DNA from: Candidatus Poribacteria bacterium
GTDB lineage: Bacteria; Poribacteria; WGA-4E; WGA-3G
Assembly (NCBI GenBank): GCA_963665235.2
Contig: CAXXLX010000002.1
Location: 1-64,000 of the forward strand
DNA length: 64,000 nucleotides
Reading direction: 5' to 3'
The translations under genes were made by a program, and so were the position numbers. The notes below the pieces were generated by a model. It made no database searches. It saw nothing but the letters and a program-made list of their open reading frames with translations, and was not told the DNA's origin. Below are positions 11,675-20,210 of this stretch, one piece after another; the first letter of the stretch is position 1; every line of letters starts with the position of its first letter.

Positions 11675-14600
11675 GTGAACACATCCAAAACTCCGAACCA
11701 AGACGCACTATATCAAGCCTTGAACATCTATCGCGATAGCATGCGCACCTTTATCTTCCAAAGCTTGAGAGCAGTACCGGGATTACTCAGCGCAGAAAAT
11801 TTTCAGAATGAAACAGATTTTGATATTAACGATTTTCCACACCTCGTCAGAAGGTATTGGGCAAATGCCTTTGAACACCGCTTCTATGCCGACCGGGATA
11901 TTCGCGGTGCTGTAGGTCTTATAACCGAAGCACGAAATAAGGCTTTCCACCCCGAGGGAGAAGACCTCGTGCTCGAATATGCCCTAGCGCGGCTCTATGA
12001 AATTTCGGATATCCTCGGACTAATCAACGCGTATAGTCAGAAAGCGGAGGTTGAAGCTATACGCGCAAAACTGTTTGCGAGCATAGTGCGCGACCCGGCT
12101 CCAGAGCCTGAACCGAAACTCCCGCGTAGAAAGGCATCCGACCTTAAGCCGTGGCGTGAAGTTATCCACCCGAACACCGATGTTATTGAAGGCACTTTTC
12201 GTAAATCGGAATTTGCCGCCGATTTGCAGGAGGTTTTCGAGGGAAAAGCGAAAACACCTGAATATGGCGAGACTGAAATCTTTTTCAATCAAACGTATAT
12301 TACCCCCGGACTCCGACACCTGTTAGTCAATACCTTGAAACGGCTCGCCGGTAAGGGGGGCGACCCGGTCATCCAGCTCAAAACAGGGTTCGGCGGCGGT
12401 AAAACCCATAGCTTAATTGCACTTTACCACCTGATCACCGGTACACATATCCTAAAAGACCTCCCGACTGAGGGGGAATATGCGCGGTTACGGGAAGAGA
12501 TAGAGGACATCCTAACAGAAGCGGACTGGGATATAAACGCGCCGCTCGACGCAAAGGTCTCTGTTCTTGTCGGCACATATCTCTCTAGCACAGATGCCGA
12601 TAAAACGGCACAAGGTGACCCGCTCAACACGCTTTGGGGCATTATGGCGAACCAACTTGGTGGACAAGATGCATACAACTTTATCCGGGACGCTGCGATT
12701 GAAGGCATTTCGCCCGGCGGCAAGCAGTTAGATGCCCTTTTTGAACACGTCGGACCTGCTGTCATCTTAATAGATGAACTTGTCGCTTACGTGCGGAACG
12801 TAGGAAGCGAGGCCCAAGCACGGCTCTATACCTTTTTTCAGACACTCACGCAGTCTATAAAGCGCTCGGACAATGTTACGTTAGTCGCTACGTTACCGGC
12901 GGGGAAAACACAAGCAGGCGGACAAGTGGGCATGACTGTCCTTGATAACCTTGAGGAAATCCTCAACCGGGTTGATGCTGTCTCCATACCTTTGGAAGTG
13001 GATAACGCATTTGAGGTCGTCCGGCGGCGGTTGTTCGGGCCGCTTATTGATGAAGAAGAACGCGATCAAACCTGTGAAGCTTTCCGCAAGATGTACCAGA
13101 ACGCTCGTAGAGCATACCCGGACAATGTCAGCGAGCAGGCCTATCTGAACCGCATGAAGGCGTGCTATCCGATTCATCCGGAAATATTTGACCGTCTCTT
13201 TCAGGACTGGGCTGTTATCCCCGGATTTCAGCGTACCCGAGCCGTGCTCCGCATTATGGCAAGTTGTATTTCACGTCTCTATCAACAGCAGGATATATCC
13301 CTGTTAATAATGCCTGCGAACCTCACCTTGGATGACCCCGCCCTCGCCGATGAATTCAAACGATTGCTTGAAAGAGCTGACAGTAATTGGGAGCCTGTCA
13401 TAACCGAAATAGACAGACACGGTTCTCGCACCGACCTCATCGATAAGCAATCTAAAATCTTCATTGAGGTAGGCGGTGCAGCACGCCGCATCGCTCGAAC
13501 TATTTTTCTCGGCAGCGCAGATGGGCGTGCTGTCAAAGGCATATCGCAGCAGCAAATCCGTATAGGGGTCGTCGAACCCGGACAAACCGCTTCTGCTTAC
13601 AACGACGCGCTCAGCAGAATGACCGGTAACCTTTACTACCTCTATAACCTCGACGATAGATACTACTTTCACACACAGGAAAATCTGAACAAGGTCGCCA
13701 AGGACAGGGCGGAGCAGTACACCAAAGAGGATATCTACGCCGAAATCGTTTCACAATTAGAACAGGCAATCGGAAGCGACCCCACTGTGTTTGTCTGCCC
13801 CGAATCTCCATGTCCCGTTAAAGATTCCGAAACGGTTCAATATGTCGTTCTGCCACCGCATGTTTCCCTGCCGAGCCGCGAAAAGGAGGAGGACACCGCA
13901 CGCGCCACAGCACTTGACATACTCACACACTGCAGTGAAGATGGACAGCTCCGAACCTTCAGGAACACACTTCTTTTTATTACAGCGCGGCGCGACGAAA
14001 TCCGTGAACTCAAAAACCTTGTCAAAAATTACCTTGCATGGCACTCAATTCTGAACGGTGATGAAATCCACGGCGCACTTAATAACCTCGAAGGCGAACG
14101 CCTAGAGCAGACAACGGAAAATCTTGAAGCCGCTAAGGATGCTGTATCGACTGCCCTATTCAAGGCATACCGATACGGATTGACACCGTCACAAGCTGAC
14201 CCGCAGAAAGACGACTACCACTTCGCTGATGTCACCAAAGAACCGGAGGATACGCAAATCGTACACCGTATCCGTGAACAATTTATCGCTGATGATATCA
14301 TCATCAAAAAGATTGACCCCGGGATATTTGTCGAAAAGTTGCAACGATATATCTGGAGTGCGGACACCACTAAAGACCATATTCGGCTGGACGCACTTTG
14401 GAAACTGACGGCACAGAACGTTTATATGCCACGGATGCAGGATTGGAACGTCCTAATGACGTGTATCAGAGATGGCGTGCTAGCGGGCACATTCGGATAT
14501 GCGAAGGCATACACAGATGACGAGTATGTCGACTTCTGTTTTGAAGGGCAGGTCGGCGCGCTTCCGAGAGATAAAGACACTACGGCTGTCCTCATAAACC

Positions 14601-14965
14601 CTGAATTAGCGAAAATAATTCAGGAGGAAAAGAAAGGGGCTGAACGGCCAGCCCCGGATACAAAACCAACTCCCGAAGTGGATGAAGAAAAGGCGGAAAC
14701 TTCAACCGAGGAGGCCGGCTCGACACCGCAGCCGAAGGGCCCCACACGCGTTGTCATCACCAAAACTCTGCAATTCACACCGGCTGCCGCCGCCGAGGTT
14801 AGCGCAATTCATGACGAAATTGCAAGCACGCTAGAGAACGATGGCGGGGAAGTCGAAATTCAAATCGTTGTCACTGCCAACAAATCGGATGGGTTTTCGG
14901 AAAACACCACCCGCTCCGTTAAGTCCAACAGTGAACTCCTAAATGCTGAATTCAAAAGCGAGTAA
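11675..14965 (+). CDS. DUF499-family AAA+ ATPase (BrxC-related) with N-terminal Swt1-like HEPN domain
   Basis: LKPWREVIHP, SEFAADL, Walker A TGFGGGKTHSL, Walker B ILIDEL, YPIHPE, FQRTR; N-terminal RNKAFH (HEPN Rx4H); AGGAG RBS before GTG. Confidence 0.88.
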   Translation: MNTSKTPNQDALYQALNIYRDSMRTFIFQSLRAVPGLLSAENFQNETDFDINDFPHLVRRYWANAFEHRFYADRDIRGAVGLITEARNKAFHPEGEDLVLEYALARLYEISDILGLINAYSQKAEVEAIRAKLFASIVRDPAPEPEPKLPRRKASDLKPWREVIHPNTDVIEGTFRKSEFAADLQEVFEGKAKTPEYGETEIFFNQTYITPGLRHLLVNTLKRLAGKGGDPVIQLKTGFGGGKTHSLIALYHLITGTHILKDLPTEGEYARLREEIEDILTEADWDINAPLDAKVSVLVGTYLSSTDADKTAQGDPLNTLWGIMANQLGGQDAYNFIRDAAIEGISPGGKQLDALFEHVGPAVILIDELVAYVRNVGSEAQARLYTFFQTLTQSIKRSDNVTLVATLPAGKTQAGGQVGMTVLDNLEEILNRVDAVSIPLEVDNAFEVVRRRLFGPLIDEEERDQTCEAFRKMYQNARRAYPDNVSEQAYLNRMKACYPIHPEIFDRLFQDWAVIPGFQRTRAVLRIMASCISRLYQQQDISLLIMPANLTLDDPALADEFKRLLERADSNWEPVITEIDRHGSRTDLIDKQSKIFIEVGGAARRIARTIFLGSADGRAVKGISQQQIRIGVVEPGQTASAYNDALSRMTGNLYYLYNLDDRYYFHTQENLNKVAKDRAEQYTKEDIYAEIVSQLEQAIGSDPTVFVCPESPCPVKDSETVQYVVLPPHVSLPSREKEEDTARATALDILTHCSEDGQLRTFRNTLLFITARRDEIRELKNLVKNYLAWHSILNGDEIHGALNNLEGERLEQTTENLEAAKDAVSTALFKAYRYGLTPSQADPQKDDYHFADVTKEPEDTQIVHRIREQFIADDIIIKKIDPGIFVEKLQRYIWSADTTKDHIRLDALWKLTAQNVYMPRMQDWNVLMTCIRDGVLAGTFGYAKAYTDDEYVDFCFEGQVGALPRDKDTTAVLINPELAKIIQEEKKGAERPAPDTKPTPEVDEEKAETSTEEAGSTPQPKGPTRVVITKTLQFTPAAAAEVSAIHDEIASTLENDGGEVEIQIVVTANKSDGFSENTTRSVKSNSELLNAEFKSE

Positions 14966-15022
14966 AATACACGGCGACACATGTCGCAAAGAATGCTGCA
15001 GCAAGCAGCCTCATTTTTTTCT

Positions 15023-15052
15023 TTGACATCTTTCCACACATTATGGTAGAAT
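15023..15052 (+). promoter_or_regulatory. Sigma70 promoter positioned for a leaderless rpn transcript (copy 1)
   Basis: TTGACA-18bp-(TGG)TAGAAT; ATG follows 6 nt after the -10; no SD. Confidence 0.65.
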
Positions 15053-15058
15053 ATAACT

Positions 15059-15644
15059 ATGGCACAAGAATATAACAATACAGCAAGAATTTTGCTAACA
15101 GAGCACGCTCCCGACATTTCACAATTTGTGCTCGACACATCGGTTTTGGAGCGGCAAGCCCCGGGTTTGCTGCCGTTTACGCCGCTGATGCGACGGCCGG
15201 CGGGTATGAATTTAGACCGGTGGGTTCAGCCCCGGGTTTGCTGCCGAATGCGACGGCCGGCGTATGAATTTAGACCGGTGGGTTCAGGAATGCGTTGATG
15301 CAACGCTTGCTGCTCCCGTCGACCAAGGGACACGAGCAGATTTGCTTTACGGAATCTCTGTCTTCGGCGGCGTAGTGTATGATTCTCAACTATTTGATAG
15401 AAATATACCGGAGGAACTTATGATAGAATCCAAAACTTACCAACAACAACGCGGACGAATTATTAGAGAAACTACTGTTAAACACATTTTGGCATTATTG
15501 AAGCGGAGATTCCAGGCAGAGGCAGTGGATGCTTTACAAACTATGCTGCTAAACATTACAGATTTGCAAAAATTGGAGGATTTGCTCTTCGCAGCATCAG
15601 AAGTGCCAAACATAGATGCGTTCGCCCAGATGCTAAACGAATAG
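15059..15644 (+). pseudogene. Internally deleted and frameshifted copy of the Rpn-family nuclease gene
   Basis: 5' end identical to the 15926 gene; the nuclease core (~340 bp) is missing after ...VLDT; ~55-bp internal duplication at ~15230-15290. Confidence 0.75.
15420..15644 (+). CDS. Rpn C-terminal small-protein cassette 1 (74 aa, RpnS-like)
   Basis: GGAGGAACTT-ATG; MIESKTY...VPNIDAFAQMLNE. Confidence 0.65.
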   Translation: MIESKTYQQQRGRIIRETTVKHILALLKRRFQAEAVDALQTMLLNITDLQKLEDLLFAASEVPNIDAFAQMLNE

Positions 15645-15710
15645 CAGCCTTTGCGCGTGTTGCTGGGCAGATGCGTTCCGTTGTATAGTCCCCGTATACC
15701 GGAGGAATTT

Positions 15711-15780
15711 ATGATAGAATCTAAAACTTACCAACGCCAACGCGAACAAATTATCAGAGAGAATACTGTTAAACACATCA
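15711..15780 (+). pseudogene. Truncated Rpn C-terminal cassette 2, interrupted just before a REP pair
   Basis: GGAGGAATTT-ATG MIESKTYQRQREQIIRENTVKHI, then homology stops. Confidence 0.65.
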
Positions 15781-15800
15781 CGTTAGGAACCGTGAATATC

Positions 15801-15863
15801 GTAGGGGCGAGGTCACCTCGCCCGTGTAAAAACATTGTGCCGACGGGGAAACCCTGCCCCTAC
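15801..15863. repeat. Inverted pair of GTAG-type REPs (REPIN-like)
   Basis: GTAGGGGCGAGGTCACCTCGCCC ... GGGGAAACCCTGCCCCTAC. Confidence 0.7.
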
Positions 15864-15889
15864 TTTATACACTCGCCCCATTTTTTTCT

Positions 15890-15919
15890 TTGACATCTTT
15901 CCACACATTATGGTAGAAT
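15890..15919 (+). promoter_or_regulatory. Sigma70 promoter positioned for a leaderless rpn transcript (copy 2)
   Basis: Identical to 15023-15052; ATG 15926 follows 6 nt after TAGAAT. Confidence 0.65.
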
Positions 15920-15925
15920 ATAACT

Positions 15926-16777
15926 ATGGCACAAGAATATAACAATACAGCAAGAATTTTGCTAACAGAGCACGCTCCCGACATTTCACAATTTGTGCTC
16001 GACACAGACGACGTTGAAGTCCTTGAGGATATTGATACGGAACAACAACACACCGTCGCACGCCGAACCGATAGCACAAAACGCATTCGTGTCGATGGGC
16101 ACGAGGCGATATTGCACATTGAGCTGCAACTTCGGGATAGCACACATAGACCGATGTGGGCCCGAAACGCAGAATATCAAGGTTATCTCGTCGGTCAACA
16201 TCAGTTGCCTGTGTATACCAACGCTATCTATTTCCACCGCAACGCGGGCAAGAATGATCCTGGGAAATACGAATATAGCTGGAACGGATATGTGTATACC
16301 CTGCACTATAAGGTAATTCGGTTGAGTCAGATAGATGGCAAATCGATTTTGGAGCGGCAAGCCCCGGGTTTGCTACCGTTTACGCCGCTGATGCGACGGC
16401 CGGCGGGTATGAATTTAGACCGGTGGGTTCAGGAATGCGTTGATACGACATTATCTGCGCCTGTTGATGAGCAGACACGGTCCGATTTACTGTTCGCTAC
16501 CTATCTGTTTGGGAGCATTGTGCATGACGCTACGGTGTATAAACACCGTATACGGGAGGAACTTATGATAGAGTCTAAAGGATACCAACTCCTTATCAGA
16601 GAGAATACTGTTAAACACATTTTGGCATTATTGAAGCGGAGATTCCAGGCAGAGGCAGTGGATGCTTTACAAACTATGCTGCTAAACATTACGGATTCGC
16701 AAAAATTGGAGGATTTGCTCTTCGCAGCATCAGAAGTGCCAAACATAGATGCGTTTGCCCAAATGCTAAACGAATAA
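15926..16777 (+). CDS. Rpn/YhgA-like (RpnC/YadD-type) PD-(D/E)XK nuclease, full length
   Basis: DIDTE...RRTD...ILHIELQ...MWARNAEY, YKVIRLSQ, GLLPFTPLM; helical C-terminal domain. Confidence 0.85.
   Translation: MAQEYNNTARILLTEHAPDISQFVLDTDDVEVLEDIDTEQQHTVARRTDSTKRIRVDGHEAILHIELQLRDSTHRPMWARNAEYQGYLVGQHQLPVYTNAIYFHRNAGKNDPGKYEYSWNGYVYTLHYKVIRLSQIDGKSILERQAPGLLPFTPLMRRPAGMNLDRWVQECVDTTLSAPVDEQTRSDLLFATYLFGSIVHDATVYKHRIREELMIESKGYQLLIRENTVKHILALLKRRFQAEAVDALQTMLLNITDSQKLEDLLFAASEVPNIDAFAQMLNE
16565..16777 (+). CDS. In-frame nested small protein (70 aa, RpnS-like antitoxin candidate)
   Basis: Internal GGGAGGAACTT-ATG encoded by the codons for REELM; preceded by hairpin TACGGTGT-ATAA-ACACCGTA. 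Confidence 0.6.
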   Translation: MIESKGYQLLIRENTVKHILALLKRRFQAEAVDALQTMLLNITDSQKLEDLLFAASEVPNIDAFAQMLNE

Positions 16778-16843
16778 CAGCCTTTGCGCGTGTTGCTGGG
16801 CAGATGCGGTCCGTTGTATAGTTCCCGTATACCGGAGGAATTT

Positions 16844-17068
16844 ATGATAGAATCCAAAACTTACCAACAACAACGCGAACGAAATTTCATAGAAAATACC
16901 ATTGAAAACACGTTGGCTTTACTGGAATCCCAATTCCAAACTGAGGCAGTCAATGCTGTCCGCCCGGTCCTTCTTCGCATAGACGATTTGGAACAACTAA
17001 AGCAGTTGCACATCGCAGCAGCAAAAGTGCCAAACATAGATGCGTTTGCCCAAATGCTAAACGAATAA
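16844..17068 (+). CDS. Stand-alone Rpn C-terminal cassette 4 (74 aa)
   Basis: GGAGGAATTT-ATG; MIESKTYQQQRERNFIENTIENTLALLESQF...VPNIDAFAQMLNE. Confidence 0.7.
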   Translation: MIESKTYQQQRERNFIENTIENTLALLESQFQTEAVNAVRPVLLRIDDLEQLKQLHIAAAKVPNIDAFAQMLNE

Positions 17069-17134
17069 CAGCCTTTGCGCGTGTTGCTGGGCAGATGCGC
17101 TCCGTTGTATAGCCCCCGTATACCGGAGGAATTT

Positions 17135-17359
17135 ATGATAGAATCTAAAACTTACCAACGACAACGGGAACGAATTATCATAGAAAGTACCATTGAAAAC
17201 ACGTTGGTTTTGCTGGAACATAGATTTTCAGGCGAGGCGGTTCATGCTGTCCGCCCGGCACTTCTGCGCATAGACGATTTGGAAAAACTAAAGCAGTTGC
17301 ATCTTGCAACAATAGAAGTGCCAAACATAGATGCGTTTGCACAAATGCTAAACGAATAG
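17135..17359 (+). CDS. Stand-alone Rpn C-terminal cassette 5 (74 aa)
   Basis: GGAGGAATTT-ATG, 291 bp after cassette 4; MIESKTYQRQRERIIIESTIENTLVLLEHRF...VPNIDAFAQMLNE. Confidence 0.7.
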   Translation: MIESKTYQRQRERIIIESTIENTLVLLEHRFSGEAVHAVRPALLRIDDLEKLKQLHLATIEVPNIDAFAQMLNE

Positions 17360-17408
17360 CAGCACCTACCCTTATAGGAACGTTTTTGTTCATGAGGACT
17401 TGTCAAAT

Positions 17409-20210
17409 ATGACCAACTCCCGCAAAAAACTCATTGAAACAAATATACCGCTCCAAGCTATTAACATAGAAGCCGCAAAGGATGCATCCCTCACACACGG
17501 ACACCCCTCAACACTGCACCGCTACTGGGCACGCAGACCCCTCGCCGCATGCCGAGCCGTTATCTTCGCTACTATGGTAGATGATCCCGCCGACTGCAAA
17601 GACGAATTCCCTACCGAATCTGAACAGAACGTCGAACGAAACCGACTCCATAGCCTCATGAAACGTCTCGTTATCTGGAAAAATAGCAACGACGAAAATA
17701 TCCTCGCGGAGGCACGGTACGAAATCGCTGTCTCTATCGCACGTAACAACGGCGAAAACGTAAAGGCATTCCGCGAAAGACATAAGCATAATCCGAAGGC
17801 AGTCCTACAATACCTCAACGACCACTGCCCCGCTGTCTACGACCCGTTCTGTGGCGGCGGCTCCATTCCACTTGAGGCACAACGGTTGGGATTACGCGCC
17901 CGCGGCAGTGACCTCAACCCCCTACCCGTCCTTATCACGAAGGCGATGATTGAATTGCCGCCGAAGTTTCACAATTGTCCGCCTATCAATCCCGATGCTG
18001 CGCCGATGGCCAGTAGCAGCCAAACGCGAACGCCCTGGAGAGGCCCTGCTGGTTTAGCAGATGACATTCGCTACTACGGCGCGTGGATGCGTGAGGAGGC
18101 ACACAAACGTATCGGACACCTCTATCCGAAGGTGCAGTTGCCGGGGGGCGGTTCTGCGACTGTGGTGGCGTGGCTCTGGGCACGGACAGTGCCGTGTGCT
18201 AACCCTGCCTGTGGTCTCCAGATGCCTTTAATGAAAACCTTTCAGTTGTCAAAAAAGAGAGGCAATGAACATTGGATTAAACCTGTTGTTGACAGAGGCT
18301 CAAATACGATTTCGTGGGTGGTGCAAACCGATAACGATGGCGTGCCAAAGCCTACCGTAAACCGTAGCGGGGCTCACTGTTTCGCCTGCGGTTCTGCTGT
18401 CAAGTCGGATTATGTTCGTGAGAAAGCACAAGCGGGCAAAATAGGGGAAATAATGACCGCAGTAGTCGCCGAAGGTAATCGTAGAAAACTGTATGTGGCC
18501 CCCACTGAAGCGGATATTGAAGGAGCCCAGTCGGCCAAAGCAACCCGGAGCCTACGGCAAGCAATGCCTAATAACCCTACTCTAGTAAGTGGGCGCGGAT
18601 ATGGAATTACGCATTGGCATCAACTTTTTACCGAGCGACAACTTACCGCATTAACCATTTTCAGCGACCTACTATCAGAGGTTAGGGCCCAGATTACACA
18701 AGATAGTGCGGACGAAAGATATGCCAATGCCGTTTGCACCTACTTATCCCTTGCTATTGGACGAACGGCTGAGAGCAGTTGTAGTTTTACATGGTGGGAA
18801 AATCAAGGAGAGAAGATTCCGCCAGTTTTTACACGCCAAGCAATTCCAATGACATGGGACTTCACTGAAACCAATTTGTTCTCTAGCTCAACACAGAACT
18901 GGCTTGCACAGATAAGGTGGATAGCAAAGGTTATCGAGAATTTACCGTGCTCCGCAAATAGAGGTGAAGTGTATCAAGCAGACGCAACCACCACAAGTCA
19001 TGCTGTCGATGCTCCAGTCATCATCACCGATCCGCCCTACTATGACAATATTGACTATGCAGATTTGTCCGACTTTTTCTATGTTTGGATACGTCCCCTG
19101 CTTCGTGATGTCTACCCCAATCTGTTTGCTGGAATACTGACCCCTAAGGCGGAGGAAATCGTGGCCATTCCGTCACGTTTTGATAATTCACAAAAGCGAT
19201 TTGAAGAATTGCTTGGTAAAGTCTTGCTACGGATACGGCAACACTGCTCTGATAAGTTCCCAACCTCTATCTTCTACGCCTACAGACAACAGGAGAAGGG
19301 ACATGATGGAAAAACTTCCACTGGCTGGGAGACGATGCTAATGGCAATCGTTAATGCTGGTTTTCAAATAGTTGGTACCTGGCCGCTGCGCACCGAGCGG
19401 ACATCCGGGGTCAAAACAAATATAAACGCGCTCGCCTCCTCTATTGTGCTCGTCTGCCGGCCGCGTGATGAGGATGCCCCCATTATAACCCGCAACGAAT
19501 TCCTACAAGTCCTGCGAAAAGAGATGCCCCCCGCCCTCAAAGGACTCACCCGCATCGCAAACATTCGACCAGTAGACTTGGCTCAAGCTGCCATTGGACC
19601 GGGCATGGAGGTCTATTCCCGCTATAGCAAGGTGATGCGTGTCAGTGGCGAAATTGTGCCGATACGGGAAGCACTTATGCATATCAACAACGAAATCGCC
19701 GCGTATCATGAAAAAGAGACCGGCACGCTCGATGCGGAAAGTCAGTTCTGTTTTACATGGCTACAGCAGCACGGCTACATGGCGGGCAATTTCGGGGATG
19801 CTGATGGGCTCTCAAAGGCGAAGGGTGTAGACATCGCCGCGATGCACGAGAGGGTGCTAATTTCGGCACGGGGACAGGTTCGGCTCTTGCGCGCGGAAGA
19901 ATATGCGGAACGTGAAAACAGCGAAGATATGACTGCCTGGGAGGGGTGTCTGCGGATGGTGTGGCATCTGTCCGGTAAGGAGCATAGCGGAGGTATTATG
20001 GGATGTGCTGCGGTTGCACGTGCGATGCGCGCTTATGAATCGGCGAAGCAGCTGGCACAGGTATTATATGCCTATCACGAAACCCGTGGCGATGCGGAAA
20101 GCGCGTCGGTTTACAACAACCTCGTGACGGAGTGGCAATATATCTCCCAAGCAACGGGTAGAAAACAGCCGATAACGCCTTTAATGCCTGAAACCGCACC
20201 GTCTCGGTAG
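17409..20210 (+). CDS. DUF1156-family N6-adenine DNA methyltransferase with Zn ribbon
   Basis: KKLIE, HPSTLHRYWARRPLAACRA, motif I DPFCGGGSIPLEA, CANPAC/CFAC, motif IV TDPPYYD, TGWETML; alternative start TTG 17400. Confidence 0.92.
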   Translation: MTNSRKKLIETNIPLQAINIEAAKDASLTHGHPSTLHRYWARRPLAACRAVIFATMVDDPADCKDEFPTESEQNVERNRLHSLMKRLVIWKNSNDENILAEARYEIAVSIARNNGENVKAFRERHKHNPKAVLQYLNDHCPAVYDPFCGGGSIPLEAQRLGLRARGSDLNPLPVLITKAMIELPPKFHNCPPINPDAAPMASSSQTRTPWRGPAGLADDIRYYGAWMREEAHKRIGHLYPKVQLPGGGSATVVAWLWARTVPCANPACGLQMPLMKTFQLSKKRGNEHWIKPVVDRGSNTISWVVQTDNDGVPKPTVNRSGAHCFACGSAVKSDYVREKAQAGKIGEIMTAVVAEGNRRKLYVAPTEADIEGAQSAKATRSLRQAMPNNPTLVSGRGYGITHWHQLFTERQLTALTIFSDLLSEVRAQITQDSADERYANAVCTYLSLAIGRTAESSCSFTWWENQGEKIPPVFTRQAIPMTWDFTETNLFSSSTQNWLAQIRWIAKVIENLPCSANRGEVYQADATTTSHAVDAPVIITDPPYYDNIDYADLSDFFYVWIRPLLRDVYPNLFAGILTPKAEEIVAIPSRFDNSQKRFEELLGKVLLRIRQHCSDKFPTSIFYAYRQQEKGHDGKTSTGWETMLMAIVNAGFQIVGTWPLRTERTSGVKTNINALASSIVLVCRPRDEDAPIITRNEFLQVLRKEMPPALKGLTRIANIRPVDLAQAAIGPGMEVYSRYSKVMRVSGEIVPIREALMHINNEIAAYHEKETGTLDAESQFCFTWLQQHGYMAGNFGDADGLSKAKGVDIAAMHERVLISARGQVRLLRAEEYAERENSEDMTAWEGCLRMVWHLSGKEHSGGIMGCAAVARAMRAYESAKQLAQVLYAYHETRGDAESASVYNNLVTEWQYISQATGRKQPITPLMPETAPSR

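Follow-up and report, generated by a model that had tools for sequence, protein, structure and literature searches.

An Rpn-like gene surrounded by copies of its own tail

We analysed a 64,000-nucleotide stretch of a Candidatus Poribacteria bacterium genome (assembly GCA_963665235.2, contig CAXXLX010000002.1, positions 1-64,000 of the forward strand; this whole stretch is hereafter the window), in which a cluster of related genes and gene fragments occupies positions 15008-17359. The cluster contains one intact gene for a 283-residue Rpn-like protein, an upstream copy of that gene that lacks the core and keeps an open reading frame (ORF) for the tail, one truncated tail cassette and two downstream cassettes of 74 codons. 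It stands between genes similar to hmaC and hmaB, and its genes, promoter sites, cassettes and spacers, like the two flanking genes, are all read on the forward strand. The intact gene (15926..16777) encodes a PD-(D/E)XK domain (approximately residues 1-205) followed by a tail, and is preceded by a sigma-70-like promoter site at 15890..15919 (TTGACA-18-TAGAAT, 11/12 matches, with TG). Its 3' end holds, in the same frame, an internal RpnS-like ORF of 70 residues (16565..16777) with GGAGG at 16555-16559.

This internal ORF is one of a series. The original prediction, made from the letters of the window, had pointed to five MIESK-type starts with a Shine-Dalgarno sequence, to four complete ORFs with a common ending and to a spacing of 291 bp, all of which are borne out by the sequence, the ORF list and a repeat search: ATG ATA GA(A/G) TC occurs at 15420, 15711, 16565, 16844 and 17135 (units U1 to U5), each time with GGAGGA 4 nucleotides to its 5' side. 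U1 (15420..15644, RpnS-like, GGAGGA at 15410-15415), U4 (16844..17068) and U5 (17135..17359) are free-standing ORFs of 74 residues, U3 is the internal ORF, and U2 (15711..15780) is truncated, with homology reaching to about 15778 (repeat copy 15695-15778, 89%); the four complete ORFs share the ending VPNIDAFAQMLNE. The repeat search groups these elements into a 300-nucleotide family with spacings of 1133, 291 and 291. Since the unit of 291 bp amounts to 97 codons, all cassettes lie in one frame with single stops between them. The frames of U4 and U5 are also open from a TTG right after the preceding stop (94-residue ORFs, 16784-17068 and 17075-17359), and from these frames it is formally possible that products are extended at the N-terminus or that read-through of a stop codon yields fusions.

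The three 66-nucleotide spacers between the units (15645..15710, 16778..16843 and 17069..17134) are near-identical in alignment, and the one behind the intact gene, which retains the Shine-Dalgarno sequence, aligns with indels to 16481-16564, the coding sequence just 5' of the internal start. The spacer is thus decayed upstream coding sequence and each unit a partial duplicate of the 3' end of the gene, in which the Shine-Dalgarno sequence, the ATG and the tail ORF were kept. Describing the array as a repeat with variable spacers, as had been done originally, is therefore misleading. A CRISPR-like reading was set aside on the same grounds: the "spacers" are interiors that code for homologous protein sequence, and the "repeats" consist of gene ends together with the remains of decayed coding sequence. 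The complete 147-nucleotide junction is present three times in the window and, across the 5.3 Mb of the genome, at just two further loci, which excludes a dispersed chance repeat; a transposon was rejected because the repeat search detected no inverted repeats in 14900-17500. No terminator-like site was found on the forward strand between the intact gene and hmaB, and an Rfam scan of 14000-18000 returned no RNA family.

A REP-like palindromic repeat (repetitive extragenic palindrome; about 26 nucleotides, 15797..15824) lies where U2 is cut off. The element also stands just 5' of both promoters of the gene family, its copy near G000:C1:3441920 lying upstream of the paralogue, and blastn gives 60 matches genome-wide, this copy included. 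Contigs from sequencing runs show loose ends and raised depth at 15797-15824.

A second gene copy without its nuclease core

There is indeed an ORF at 15420, which had first been taken for an orphan cassette, but it is part of something larger: the whole gene is present a second time at 15008-15644, with an internal deletion. This copy opens with a duplicate of the promoter and of the first 27 codons (15008..15139, 99% identical to 15875-16006; promoter-like site at 15023-15052, again sigma-70-like with TTGACA-18-TAGAAT, 11/12 matches and TG), continues with a remnant of codons ~139-170 (15136..15260, in which 15136-15229 is 97% identical to 16339-16432) and closes with a 126-residue ORF for the C-terminal part (15264..15644). 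It has no equivalent of 16007-16338, the part of the intact gene that bears the catalytic D49, E66 and Q68. A 71-nucleotide internal duplication (15157-15184 and 15228-15255, seen in the repeat search as a family with spacing 71) breaks its frame, a frameshifted junk ORF of 79 residues runs from 15059 to 15298, and 15262-15382 is just 74% identical to 16407-16527. The 126-residue ORF is identical to the C-terminal part of P0003, an intact 287-residue protein of another assembly, meaning that the sister gene is whole elsewhere.

A further protein, P0217 (103 residues), has its first ~30 residues joined directly to the tail, a core deletion like that of the upstream copy in the window. These two deletions of the nuclease core suggest, as far as sequence comparison can tell, that the toxin is lost recurrently and the antitoxin kept.

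The internal start is conserved at the nucleotide level

We assembled 45 distinct full-length homologues, comprising paralogues of this genome and genes at the loci of relatives, and located the internal methionine in 39 of them. The sequence signal of an ATG with GGAGG at -10 to -6 is present in 36/39, a count that is not one of independent cases, the 39 homologues being mutually related. The G at -10 is retained in 37/39 though its codon specifies P, Q, R, L, S or M, and the G at -6 in 38/39 though its codon specifies E, G, A, V or D. The Shine-Dalgarno sequence is therefore kept through amino-acid changes, a nucleotide-level conservation that exceeds what the protein needs and that is expected for a working Shine-Dalgarno sequence. 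The signal for an internal start, first proposed from a single gene, is in this way widespread in its family.

A distant relative of the Rpn nucleases

On sequence grounds the 283-residue protein is Rpn-like, a distant relative that lies outside the Pfam model. With a profile of the 39 family members, the tail matches the tails of five PF04754-type proteins of this genome (hhalign probability 97.4%, E 1.6e-11); the PF04754 status of two of these five was checked by Pfam scan (E 2e-28 and 2e-27). The PF04754 (YhgA-like) proteins that share such tails carry an EHQS motif and, 5' of the tail, four-residue GIEQ or GEQR repeats. DUF4351 is matched by 3/46 tails (best E 3.6e-5), the window cassettes not being among them, and by 3/39 full-length proteins. 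The 39-homologue profile also aligns collinearly with Escherichia coli K-12 RpnE over 245 columns (hhalign probability 77%, E 2e-5), the D and ExQ/EHQ motifs being in register, and the tail matches E. coli YpaA weakly (probability 38%, E 3.4e-4).

The residues D49, H64, E66 and Q68 are invariant in the 39 homologues. An AlphaFold2 model of the protein has a predicted local distance difference test score (pLDDT) of 91, and its residues 5-132 match PD-(D/E)XK nucleases at middling Z scores (2vld, Z 8.2, root mean square deviation 3.0 over 100 residues; 1xmx, Z 7.2; 8bao, which is Can2, Z 6.8), with McrC, FokI and BglII as further structural matches of the N-terminal domain. The protein accordingly has the N-terminal PD-(D/E)XK domain with a D...ExQ-type motif that membership in the Rpn type requires. 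The nearest named clusters in the ESM Atlas are labelled "Rpn family recombination-promoting nuclease" (cosine 0.97), which we take as a lead only, and Foldseek found no match in the PDB at E <= 0.001 for either the full-length or the tail model. The family comprises 455 cluster representatives at E <= 1e-3, of which the named ones are all Poribacteria entries called "hypothetical protein".

Heads and interiors move as modules

Alignment of the units resolves three modules, a head, an interior and an end, the last occurring as a window type and a paralogue type. In comparisons of U4 with U1 and U3, and of U1 with U3, the ends are near-invariant (42-45/45 columns of 3' coding sequence and 28-29/31 of spacer); U5, the last unit, has 33-34/45 in the 3' block and no spacer. 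The interiors are of two types, A and B, with 113/115 identical nucleotides between A and A and 74-78/115 between A and B. The near-invariant junction and the two interior types of the original prediction thus both hold.

Interior A is found in U1 and in the intact gene, while interior B is found in U4, in a diverged form in U5, and in the paralogue C1:3442008, whose resident tail agrees with the U4 interior at 103-106/115 nucleotides; a comparison of type-B cassettes with the tails of other rpn genes had been proposed as a check, and this is the match. The heads are distributed otherwise: head 1, which has 12 extra nucleotides, is carried by U1, U4 and U5, and head 2 by the intact gene and by both tails of C1:3442008. 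Head 2 is identical (48/48) between the window gene and this paralogue, and their interiors share 76/115 nucleotides. All four combinations of head and interior are present, which requires recombination and agrees with the exchange of modules proposed at the outset. Full-length proteins of other assemblies combine head 1 with A (P0003), head 2 with B (P0004) and, in a frameshifted gene, head 1 with B (P0006); P0002 repeats the combination of the window gene itself, head 2 with A. A third locus of this genome, G000:C1:418881-419777, has a cassette of head 1 and interior A that is split by an insertion of ~290 nucleotides and followed by the same junction as in the window (89% identical over 144 nucleotides), with the start of a further unit.

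The difference between the heads has a counterpart in E. coli, where RpnS proteins vary by four-residue repeats 8-20 residues after the methionine and where a single added 4-residue repeat abolished neutralisation in the case of RpnC, as described in passages of PMC10400941. The tail of the window gene is 4 residues (12 nucleotides) shorter than all three complete free-standing copies, and the position of the indel, behind residue 9 of the small ORF, is inside the zone reported for E. coli RpnS. Such steps are common in the family: among 18 pairs of full-length and free tails, 10 are of equal length, 7 differ by +/-4 residues and 1 by +1, the tails of orthologues fall into classes of 70, 74 and 78 residues, and explicit GIEQ, GEQR and RDEG repeats are seen in paralogues. 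Given that a one-repeat mismatch abolishes neutralisation in E. coli RpnC, the resident nuclease is probably not the cognate partner of the free-standing copies, with their 4 additional residues. In this genome we saw no head-1 gene that was both full-length and intact.

Constraint on the cassettes and predicted pairing of the tails

The ratio of non-synonymous to synonymous changes per site (pN/pS) is 0.22-0.51 over the six pairs in the window and 0.12-0.86 over 19 within-locus pairs from 13 other loci (pooled 0.36). U4 and U5, which differ at 34 nucleotides, give 0.43 (Fisher p 0.006). None of the three complete free-standing ORFs is disrupted, and a U5-like ORF of 74 residues (P0273), a close relative in another assembly, is likewise intact; the longest contigs of P0273 and P0003 agree in length (31,264 nucleotides). 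The original prediction had hung on the cassettes not evolving neutrally, and their substitution pattern is, so far as alignments reveal it, that of coding sequence under purifying selection.

The tail modelled alone is a long helix (residues 5-30) with three shorter ones (pLDDT 85). A U4 homodimer modelled through helix 1 scored 0.78 against 0.50 for the best control, three runs agreeing in 100% of contacts and the partner having a pLDDT of at least 88; the mark that it passed is reached by 20/30 solved homodimers and 1/23 solved single chains. The modelled interface consists of residues 7-29 and 53-61 and would therefore include the site of the indel. An RpnS dimer has already been solved (RpnA-S, 7TH0, cited in PMC10400941), so that the model may owe its pass only to resemblance with a structure already known. 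VIA-align on the tail model returned generic helical bundles only.

Recurrence in this genome, in relatives and in sequencing runs

An iterated search of this genome found 78 tail-domain and 46 N-domain matches at 54 loci, of which 11 hold at least two tail domains; intact full-length ORFs of the family number 18. In relatives, a match at E <= 1e-40 is present in 37 of 61 genomes (this one included), and 11 of the 29 best loci of relatives have extra tails, up to two per locus, L029 containing three mutually diverged ones. The arrangement is thus not peculiar to this assembly, a point on which the original prediction also depended. Toxin cores are repeatedly deleted or interrupted across these loci and the tails remain open.

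Three paralogues (C1:1162092-1162962, C1:1171707-1172550 and C1:210680-211534) are interrupted at the same position by one inserted repeat, which translates as LANGYWLLAYGKIF / NGNWLMAIGYWL. From its sequence it looks like an insertion of the miniature inverted-repeat transposable element type, which would split the nuclease domain and leave the tail ORF open. In two other proteins, P0239 (275 residues) and P0267 (271 residues), three mutually diverged tail domains follow one another in one ORF; these are arrays read as a single polypeptide, as expected if in-frame units lose their single stops.

Among 32 pattern matches in metagenome contigs there was no relative. Parts of the stretch occur in 12 rows of 7 studies of sequencing runs, among them the RNA run X8 with 0.06 of words, and pieces specific to single units are exact in the runs of study P1 and exact or near-exact in X5, a run of a second study. 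Contigs from these runs also contain joints that skip 291 nucleotides (16597 to 16889; depth 37.5 in X1 and 3.5 in X5, with a shorter side of 30-31 nucleotides) or 282 nucleotides (15433 to 15716, in X5), the shorter side of the skip joints measuring 27-31 nucleotides overall. We rejected them as evidence of rearrangement, the overlaps being short and the 291-nucleotide joint matching the paralogue's own tail.

An HmaC/HmaB setting without a helicase

Both flanks of the cluster match defence genes, in agreement with the setting first proposed. Upstream stands an HmaC-like DUF499 AAA+ ATPase (11675..14965; PADLOC HmaC E 7.9e-221 over residues 156-1091, Pfam DUF499 E 5.5e-27) and downstream an HmaB-like DUF1156 adenine methyltransferase (17400..20210; PADLOC HmaB E 2.3e-279, Pfam DUF1156 E 3.9e-24). 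Hma belongs to the DUF499-centred, BREX-related systems treated in parts of PMC8565338, PMC11232893 and PMC12839542; section 28 of the last gives its tripartite core (DUF499 ATPase, DUF1156 N6-methyltransferase and helicase) as well as DUF499-HEPN fusions, and in the portion of that source available to us the words "Rpn" and "YhgA" occur 0 times each. At the window locus only HmaC and HmaB of this core are present, and no HmaA-like gene was found near it or in the syntenic 18-kb loci of relatives (L055-L058). The sole strong HmaA match of the genome (C1:2092724) has its own HmaB and HmaC and forms with them a canonical hmaABC set (C1:2087043-2096098), whose HmaB and HmaC are ~27% identical to those of the window. 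At this identity, the genome has two divergent DUF499-centred systems, with the helicase only in the C1:2087043-2096098 set.

HmaC, the rpn-like gene and HmaB follow one another in the same order in G036, G003, G017 and G027 (further genera g6, g4 and g3), and G015 has HmaC - HmaB - rpn-like. In all, 5 of the 29 best-match loci of relatives adjoin hmaB or hmaC, over three further genera. As to the flanking genes themselves, the N-terminus of the HmaC-like protein (11675-12140, ~155 residues) precedes the PADLOC match and contains an R-N-K-A-F-H stretch that resembles the HEPN Rx4-6H motif, and in L057 (G015:C4, 7902-9236) an HmaB-like gene is split at residues ~841/~840 (numbered as in the window protein) by ~1.3 kb of unrelated sequence, a possible insertion.

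What the cluster may be

We consider it probable that the locus is a tandem-duplication cluster of a Poribacteria-specific Rpn-like toxin/intragenic-antitoxin gene placed between hmaC and hmaB; it is not debris only. On the model of the homologous E. coli Rpn, the tail ORFs would each be translated into a protein of ~8.5 kDa, which would use its long first helix to pair with the tail of a full-length nuclease and so block that nuclease. The units exchange segments by homologous recombination, both mutually and with a paralogue at another genomic locus. U1 would then be the widowed antitoxin of a decayed sister toxin, and U4 and U5 extra genes of the rpnSs type, whose cognate toxin form would not be intact in this genome.

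Several results weigh against this account. (i), Pfam and NCBIfam have no model that reaches threshold on the 283-residue protein or the cassettes, so that other evidence was needed to establish the Rpn identity; PF04754 (Transposase_31) appears only below threshold, in 5/39 family members (best E 0.02), and the N-domain alone, compared by hhalign with the PF04754 proteins of this genome, gives a non-significant probability of 6.5%. Sequence searches of the PDB with the single protein and with two profiles gave nothing meaningful, the solved RpnA-S not being returned. (ii), in the loci examined just 11 of 21 free-standing cassettes have GGAG or GAGG within 18 nucleotides. (iii), the rule that a mismatch of 4 residues makes a tail non-cognate is carried over from a single E. 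coli experiment. (iv), a pN/pS below 1 could be inherited from a past as part of full-length genes, the segments having then been moved by recombination. (v), 7TH0 is absent among the fold-search matches listed for the tail model, small helical bundles matching non-specifically. (vi), the four runs from two studies that were compared yield short Logan contigs of 115-270 nucleotides within the repeat, none of which spans the array.

Alternatively, the free-standing units might be mainly silent recombination donors that re-tail the nuclease together with its nested antitoxin and thereby diversify the tail against phage-encoded mimics or inhibitors. This is a tentative possibility, and one that is compatible with a duplication cluster. 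Given the in-frame unit of 291 bp, a single unequal exchange or deletion would replace the tail of the nuclease and the nested antitoxin in one event, and the common frame of all units with single stops between them suits such a reservoir. So do the four-gamete mosaic with its identical head 2 in gene and paralogue, the presence of every combination of head and interior on full-length proteins of other assemblies, and the E. coli fusions of an rpn N-domain with rpnSs that are described in part of PMC10400941. The joint that skips one 291-nucleotide unit in X1 and X5 might be added to these, but with its short side it probably comes from the paralogue, whose tail has nearly the same sequence. 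A pure donor, moreover, needs neither a conserved Shine-Dalgarno sequence and ATG nor a pN/pS below 1, and a recombinase or directed mechanism is not evident.

Orphan immunity genes are known to neutralise polymorphic toxins other than their own partner, and the cassettes could likewise be expressed against non-cognate Rpn-like toxins, whether of paralogues in the same cell or of incoming mobile copies. The match of the type-B interior to the resident tail of C1:3442008 speaks for such an antitoxin library, as does the surplus of tails without a toxin (78 tail-domain matches vs 18 intact ORFs), with toxin cores repeatedly lost and tails open. We nevertheless find it doubtful as the purpose of the array, since Rpn toxins act inside the producing cell, where there is no delivered toxin to resist, and since the E. 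coli repeat rule predicts no neutralisation between the head 1 of U4 and U5 and the head 2 of the paralogue, no intact full-length head-1 gene having been seen in the genome.

It is unlikely that the cassettes are non-functional, young by-products of slipped or unequal exchange at recombination-prone loci that have not yet decayed. The frameshifted stub at 15059-15298, the 71-nucleotide duplication and the truncation of U2 beside a REP-like element are clear debris, 10/21 free cassettes have no clear Shine-Dalgarno sequence, and E. coli ypaA is annotated as a pseudogene in the K-12 record. Three free-standing ORFs have nevertheless stayed intact despite the 34 differences between U4 and U5, at a pN/pS of 0.43; the Shine-Dalgarno sequence and ATG were kept while the adjacent 66-nucleotide spacer took indels; the U5-like P0273 is intact elsewhere and extra tails recur at 11/29 loci of relatives; and tagged RpnESs, the product of ypaA, was detected by Zhong et al. 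(PMC10400941, as seen in part of the text).

We also hold it to be quite improbable that the Rpn-like gene with its cassettes belongs to a helicase-less HmaC/HmaB system as an integral third part, its PD-(D/E)XK nuclease replacing the HmaA helicase-nuclease. The repeated order HmaC - rpn-like - HmaB (G036, G003, G017 and G027, with G015 rearranged) invites the idea, as does the want of an HmaA-like gene in L055-L058 and near the window locus while hmaABC stands elsewhere. Just 5/29 loci of relatives, however, adjoin hmaB or hmaC, Hma genes are missing beside the closest paralogue (87% identical), and common descent of the four genera can account for the synteny; hma operons are, besides, reported hotspots for inserted defence genes, ~66.5% of them having insertions (PMC11232893, part of the text). 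An assembler that inflated or collapsed the number of 291-bp units is very improbable: there is no array-spanning Logan contig to exclude it directly, but interiors A and B differ too much (74-78/115) to be collapsed identical repeats, unit-specific pieces are exact in the P1 runs and exact or near-exact in X5, and comparable arrays exist in other genomes.

The duplication cluster that we favour may also be stated in a far bolder form, to which we give little credence as a whole. In that form the Poribacteria arrays would be an expressed, register-shifted library of RpnS-like proteins fed by exchange of whole units between cassettes and paralogues, each exchange giving the nuclease and its nested antitoxin a new tail at a stroke, unused cassettes would serve as orphan antitoxins, and the helicase-less HmaC/HmaB locus would be a setting of it in at least four genera. 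If true, a defence gene of the toxin-antitoxin kind would thereby have a means of generating diversity, similar in its logic to antigenic variation from silent cassettes. It was only in 2023 that Rpn toxin/intragenic-antitoxin systems were defined, and the locus bears both on the hypervariability of their tails and on the role of extra rpnS copies. It adds a previously unannotated Rpn-like family, in which a gene-within-gene signal, Shine-Dalgarno sequence plus ATG, is conserved far beyond the Pfam-defined family and in an uncultivated phylum (a sponge symbiont). Its extra tail genes can accumulate to at least three per locus and stay intact, often 4 residues off the resident tail, which is the specificity step of E. 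coli. Matched and mismatched tails therefore occur here as a natural set on which the specificity rule can be examined, with unit-wise exchange as a testable route of tail diversification.

Comparison with known systems

This arrangement is not unprecedented. In the passages of Zhong et al., 2023 (PMC10400941) available to us, the antitoxin is encoded as a gene within the gene, rpn arrays arise by tandem duplication, free-standing rpnSs genes annotated as DUF4351 stand downstream of rpnC and rpnE (rpnCSs and ypaA), and an rpn N-domain is found fused to the rpnSs region, with loss of rpnSs. The same text reports detection of the tagged RpnESs (ypaA) protein, and, together with a commentary by Koonin (PMC10400984), suggests RpnL itself as a driver of rpn rearrangements. 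In the K-12 record ypaA starts 13 nucleotides after rpnE and is annotated as a pseudogene. The original view that such a layout had not been described must therefore be given up, although a search of full-text literature found no multi-copy, diversified tail arrays, of which the supplement of Zhong et al., 2023 may hold closer cases.

The closest parallels are rpnE-ypaA and rpnC-rpnCSs of E. coli, with which the window locus shares a nuclease gene whose tail is provided with an internal start, a further small gene for the tail directly downstream, tail steps of 4 residues in the first helix, surroundings of defence genes and an origin by local duplication. Unlike rpnE-ypaA, it has three complete free-standing copies and one truncated copy around a single gene, and these are of two interior types and shifted by 4 residues from the resident tail. 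Downstream copies in E. coli cluster with their own upstream tail, so far as the available part of that work describes them, whereas the window copies are mosaic with the tail of a paralogue; and the family, unlike RpnE and RpnC, stays below the PF04754 and DUF4351 thresholds. With the tandem rpn arrays of Zhong et al., 2023 the locus has in common direct duplications with varied end-points and, within the same passages, no target-site duplications reported; those arrays are duplications of genes, whereas most window units are tail-only and one copy is core-deleted.

Each orphan module downstream of rhs or cdiA pairs a toxin tip with a separate gene for immunity, and such modules act between cells. 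The window resembles them in its row of variable C-terminal modules after a full-length gene, with conserved boundaries that permit C-terminus swaps. It differs in that its modules are themselves regulatory or antitoxin tails, the toxin domain being N-terminal and constant. Each unit holds one ORF of 74 residues, and not the toxin C-terminus plus immunity gene per module that defines Rhs and contact-dependent inhibition (CDI) systems, so that the likeness is one of layout only. Like Hma systems, finally, the locus has HmaC and HmaB flanks and an inserted defence gene, and unlike them it has no adjacent HmaA helicase, the insert being an Rpn-like gene with tail cassettes. The window locus is therefore no new kind of system, and it extends the arrangement described as single extra copies in E. 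coli; what is new here is the number of cassettes, their shift in register, the modular recombination with a paralogue, the unannotated family and the recurrent placement between hmaC and hmaB.

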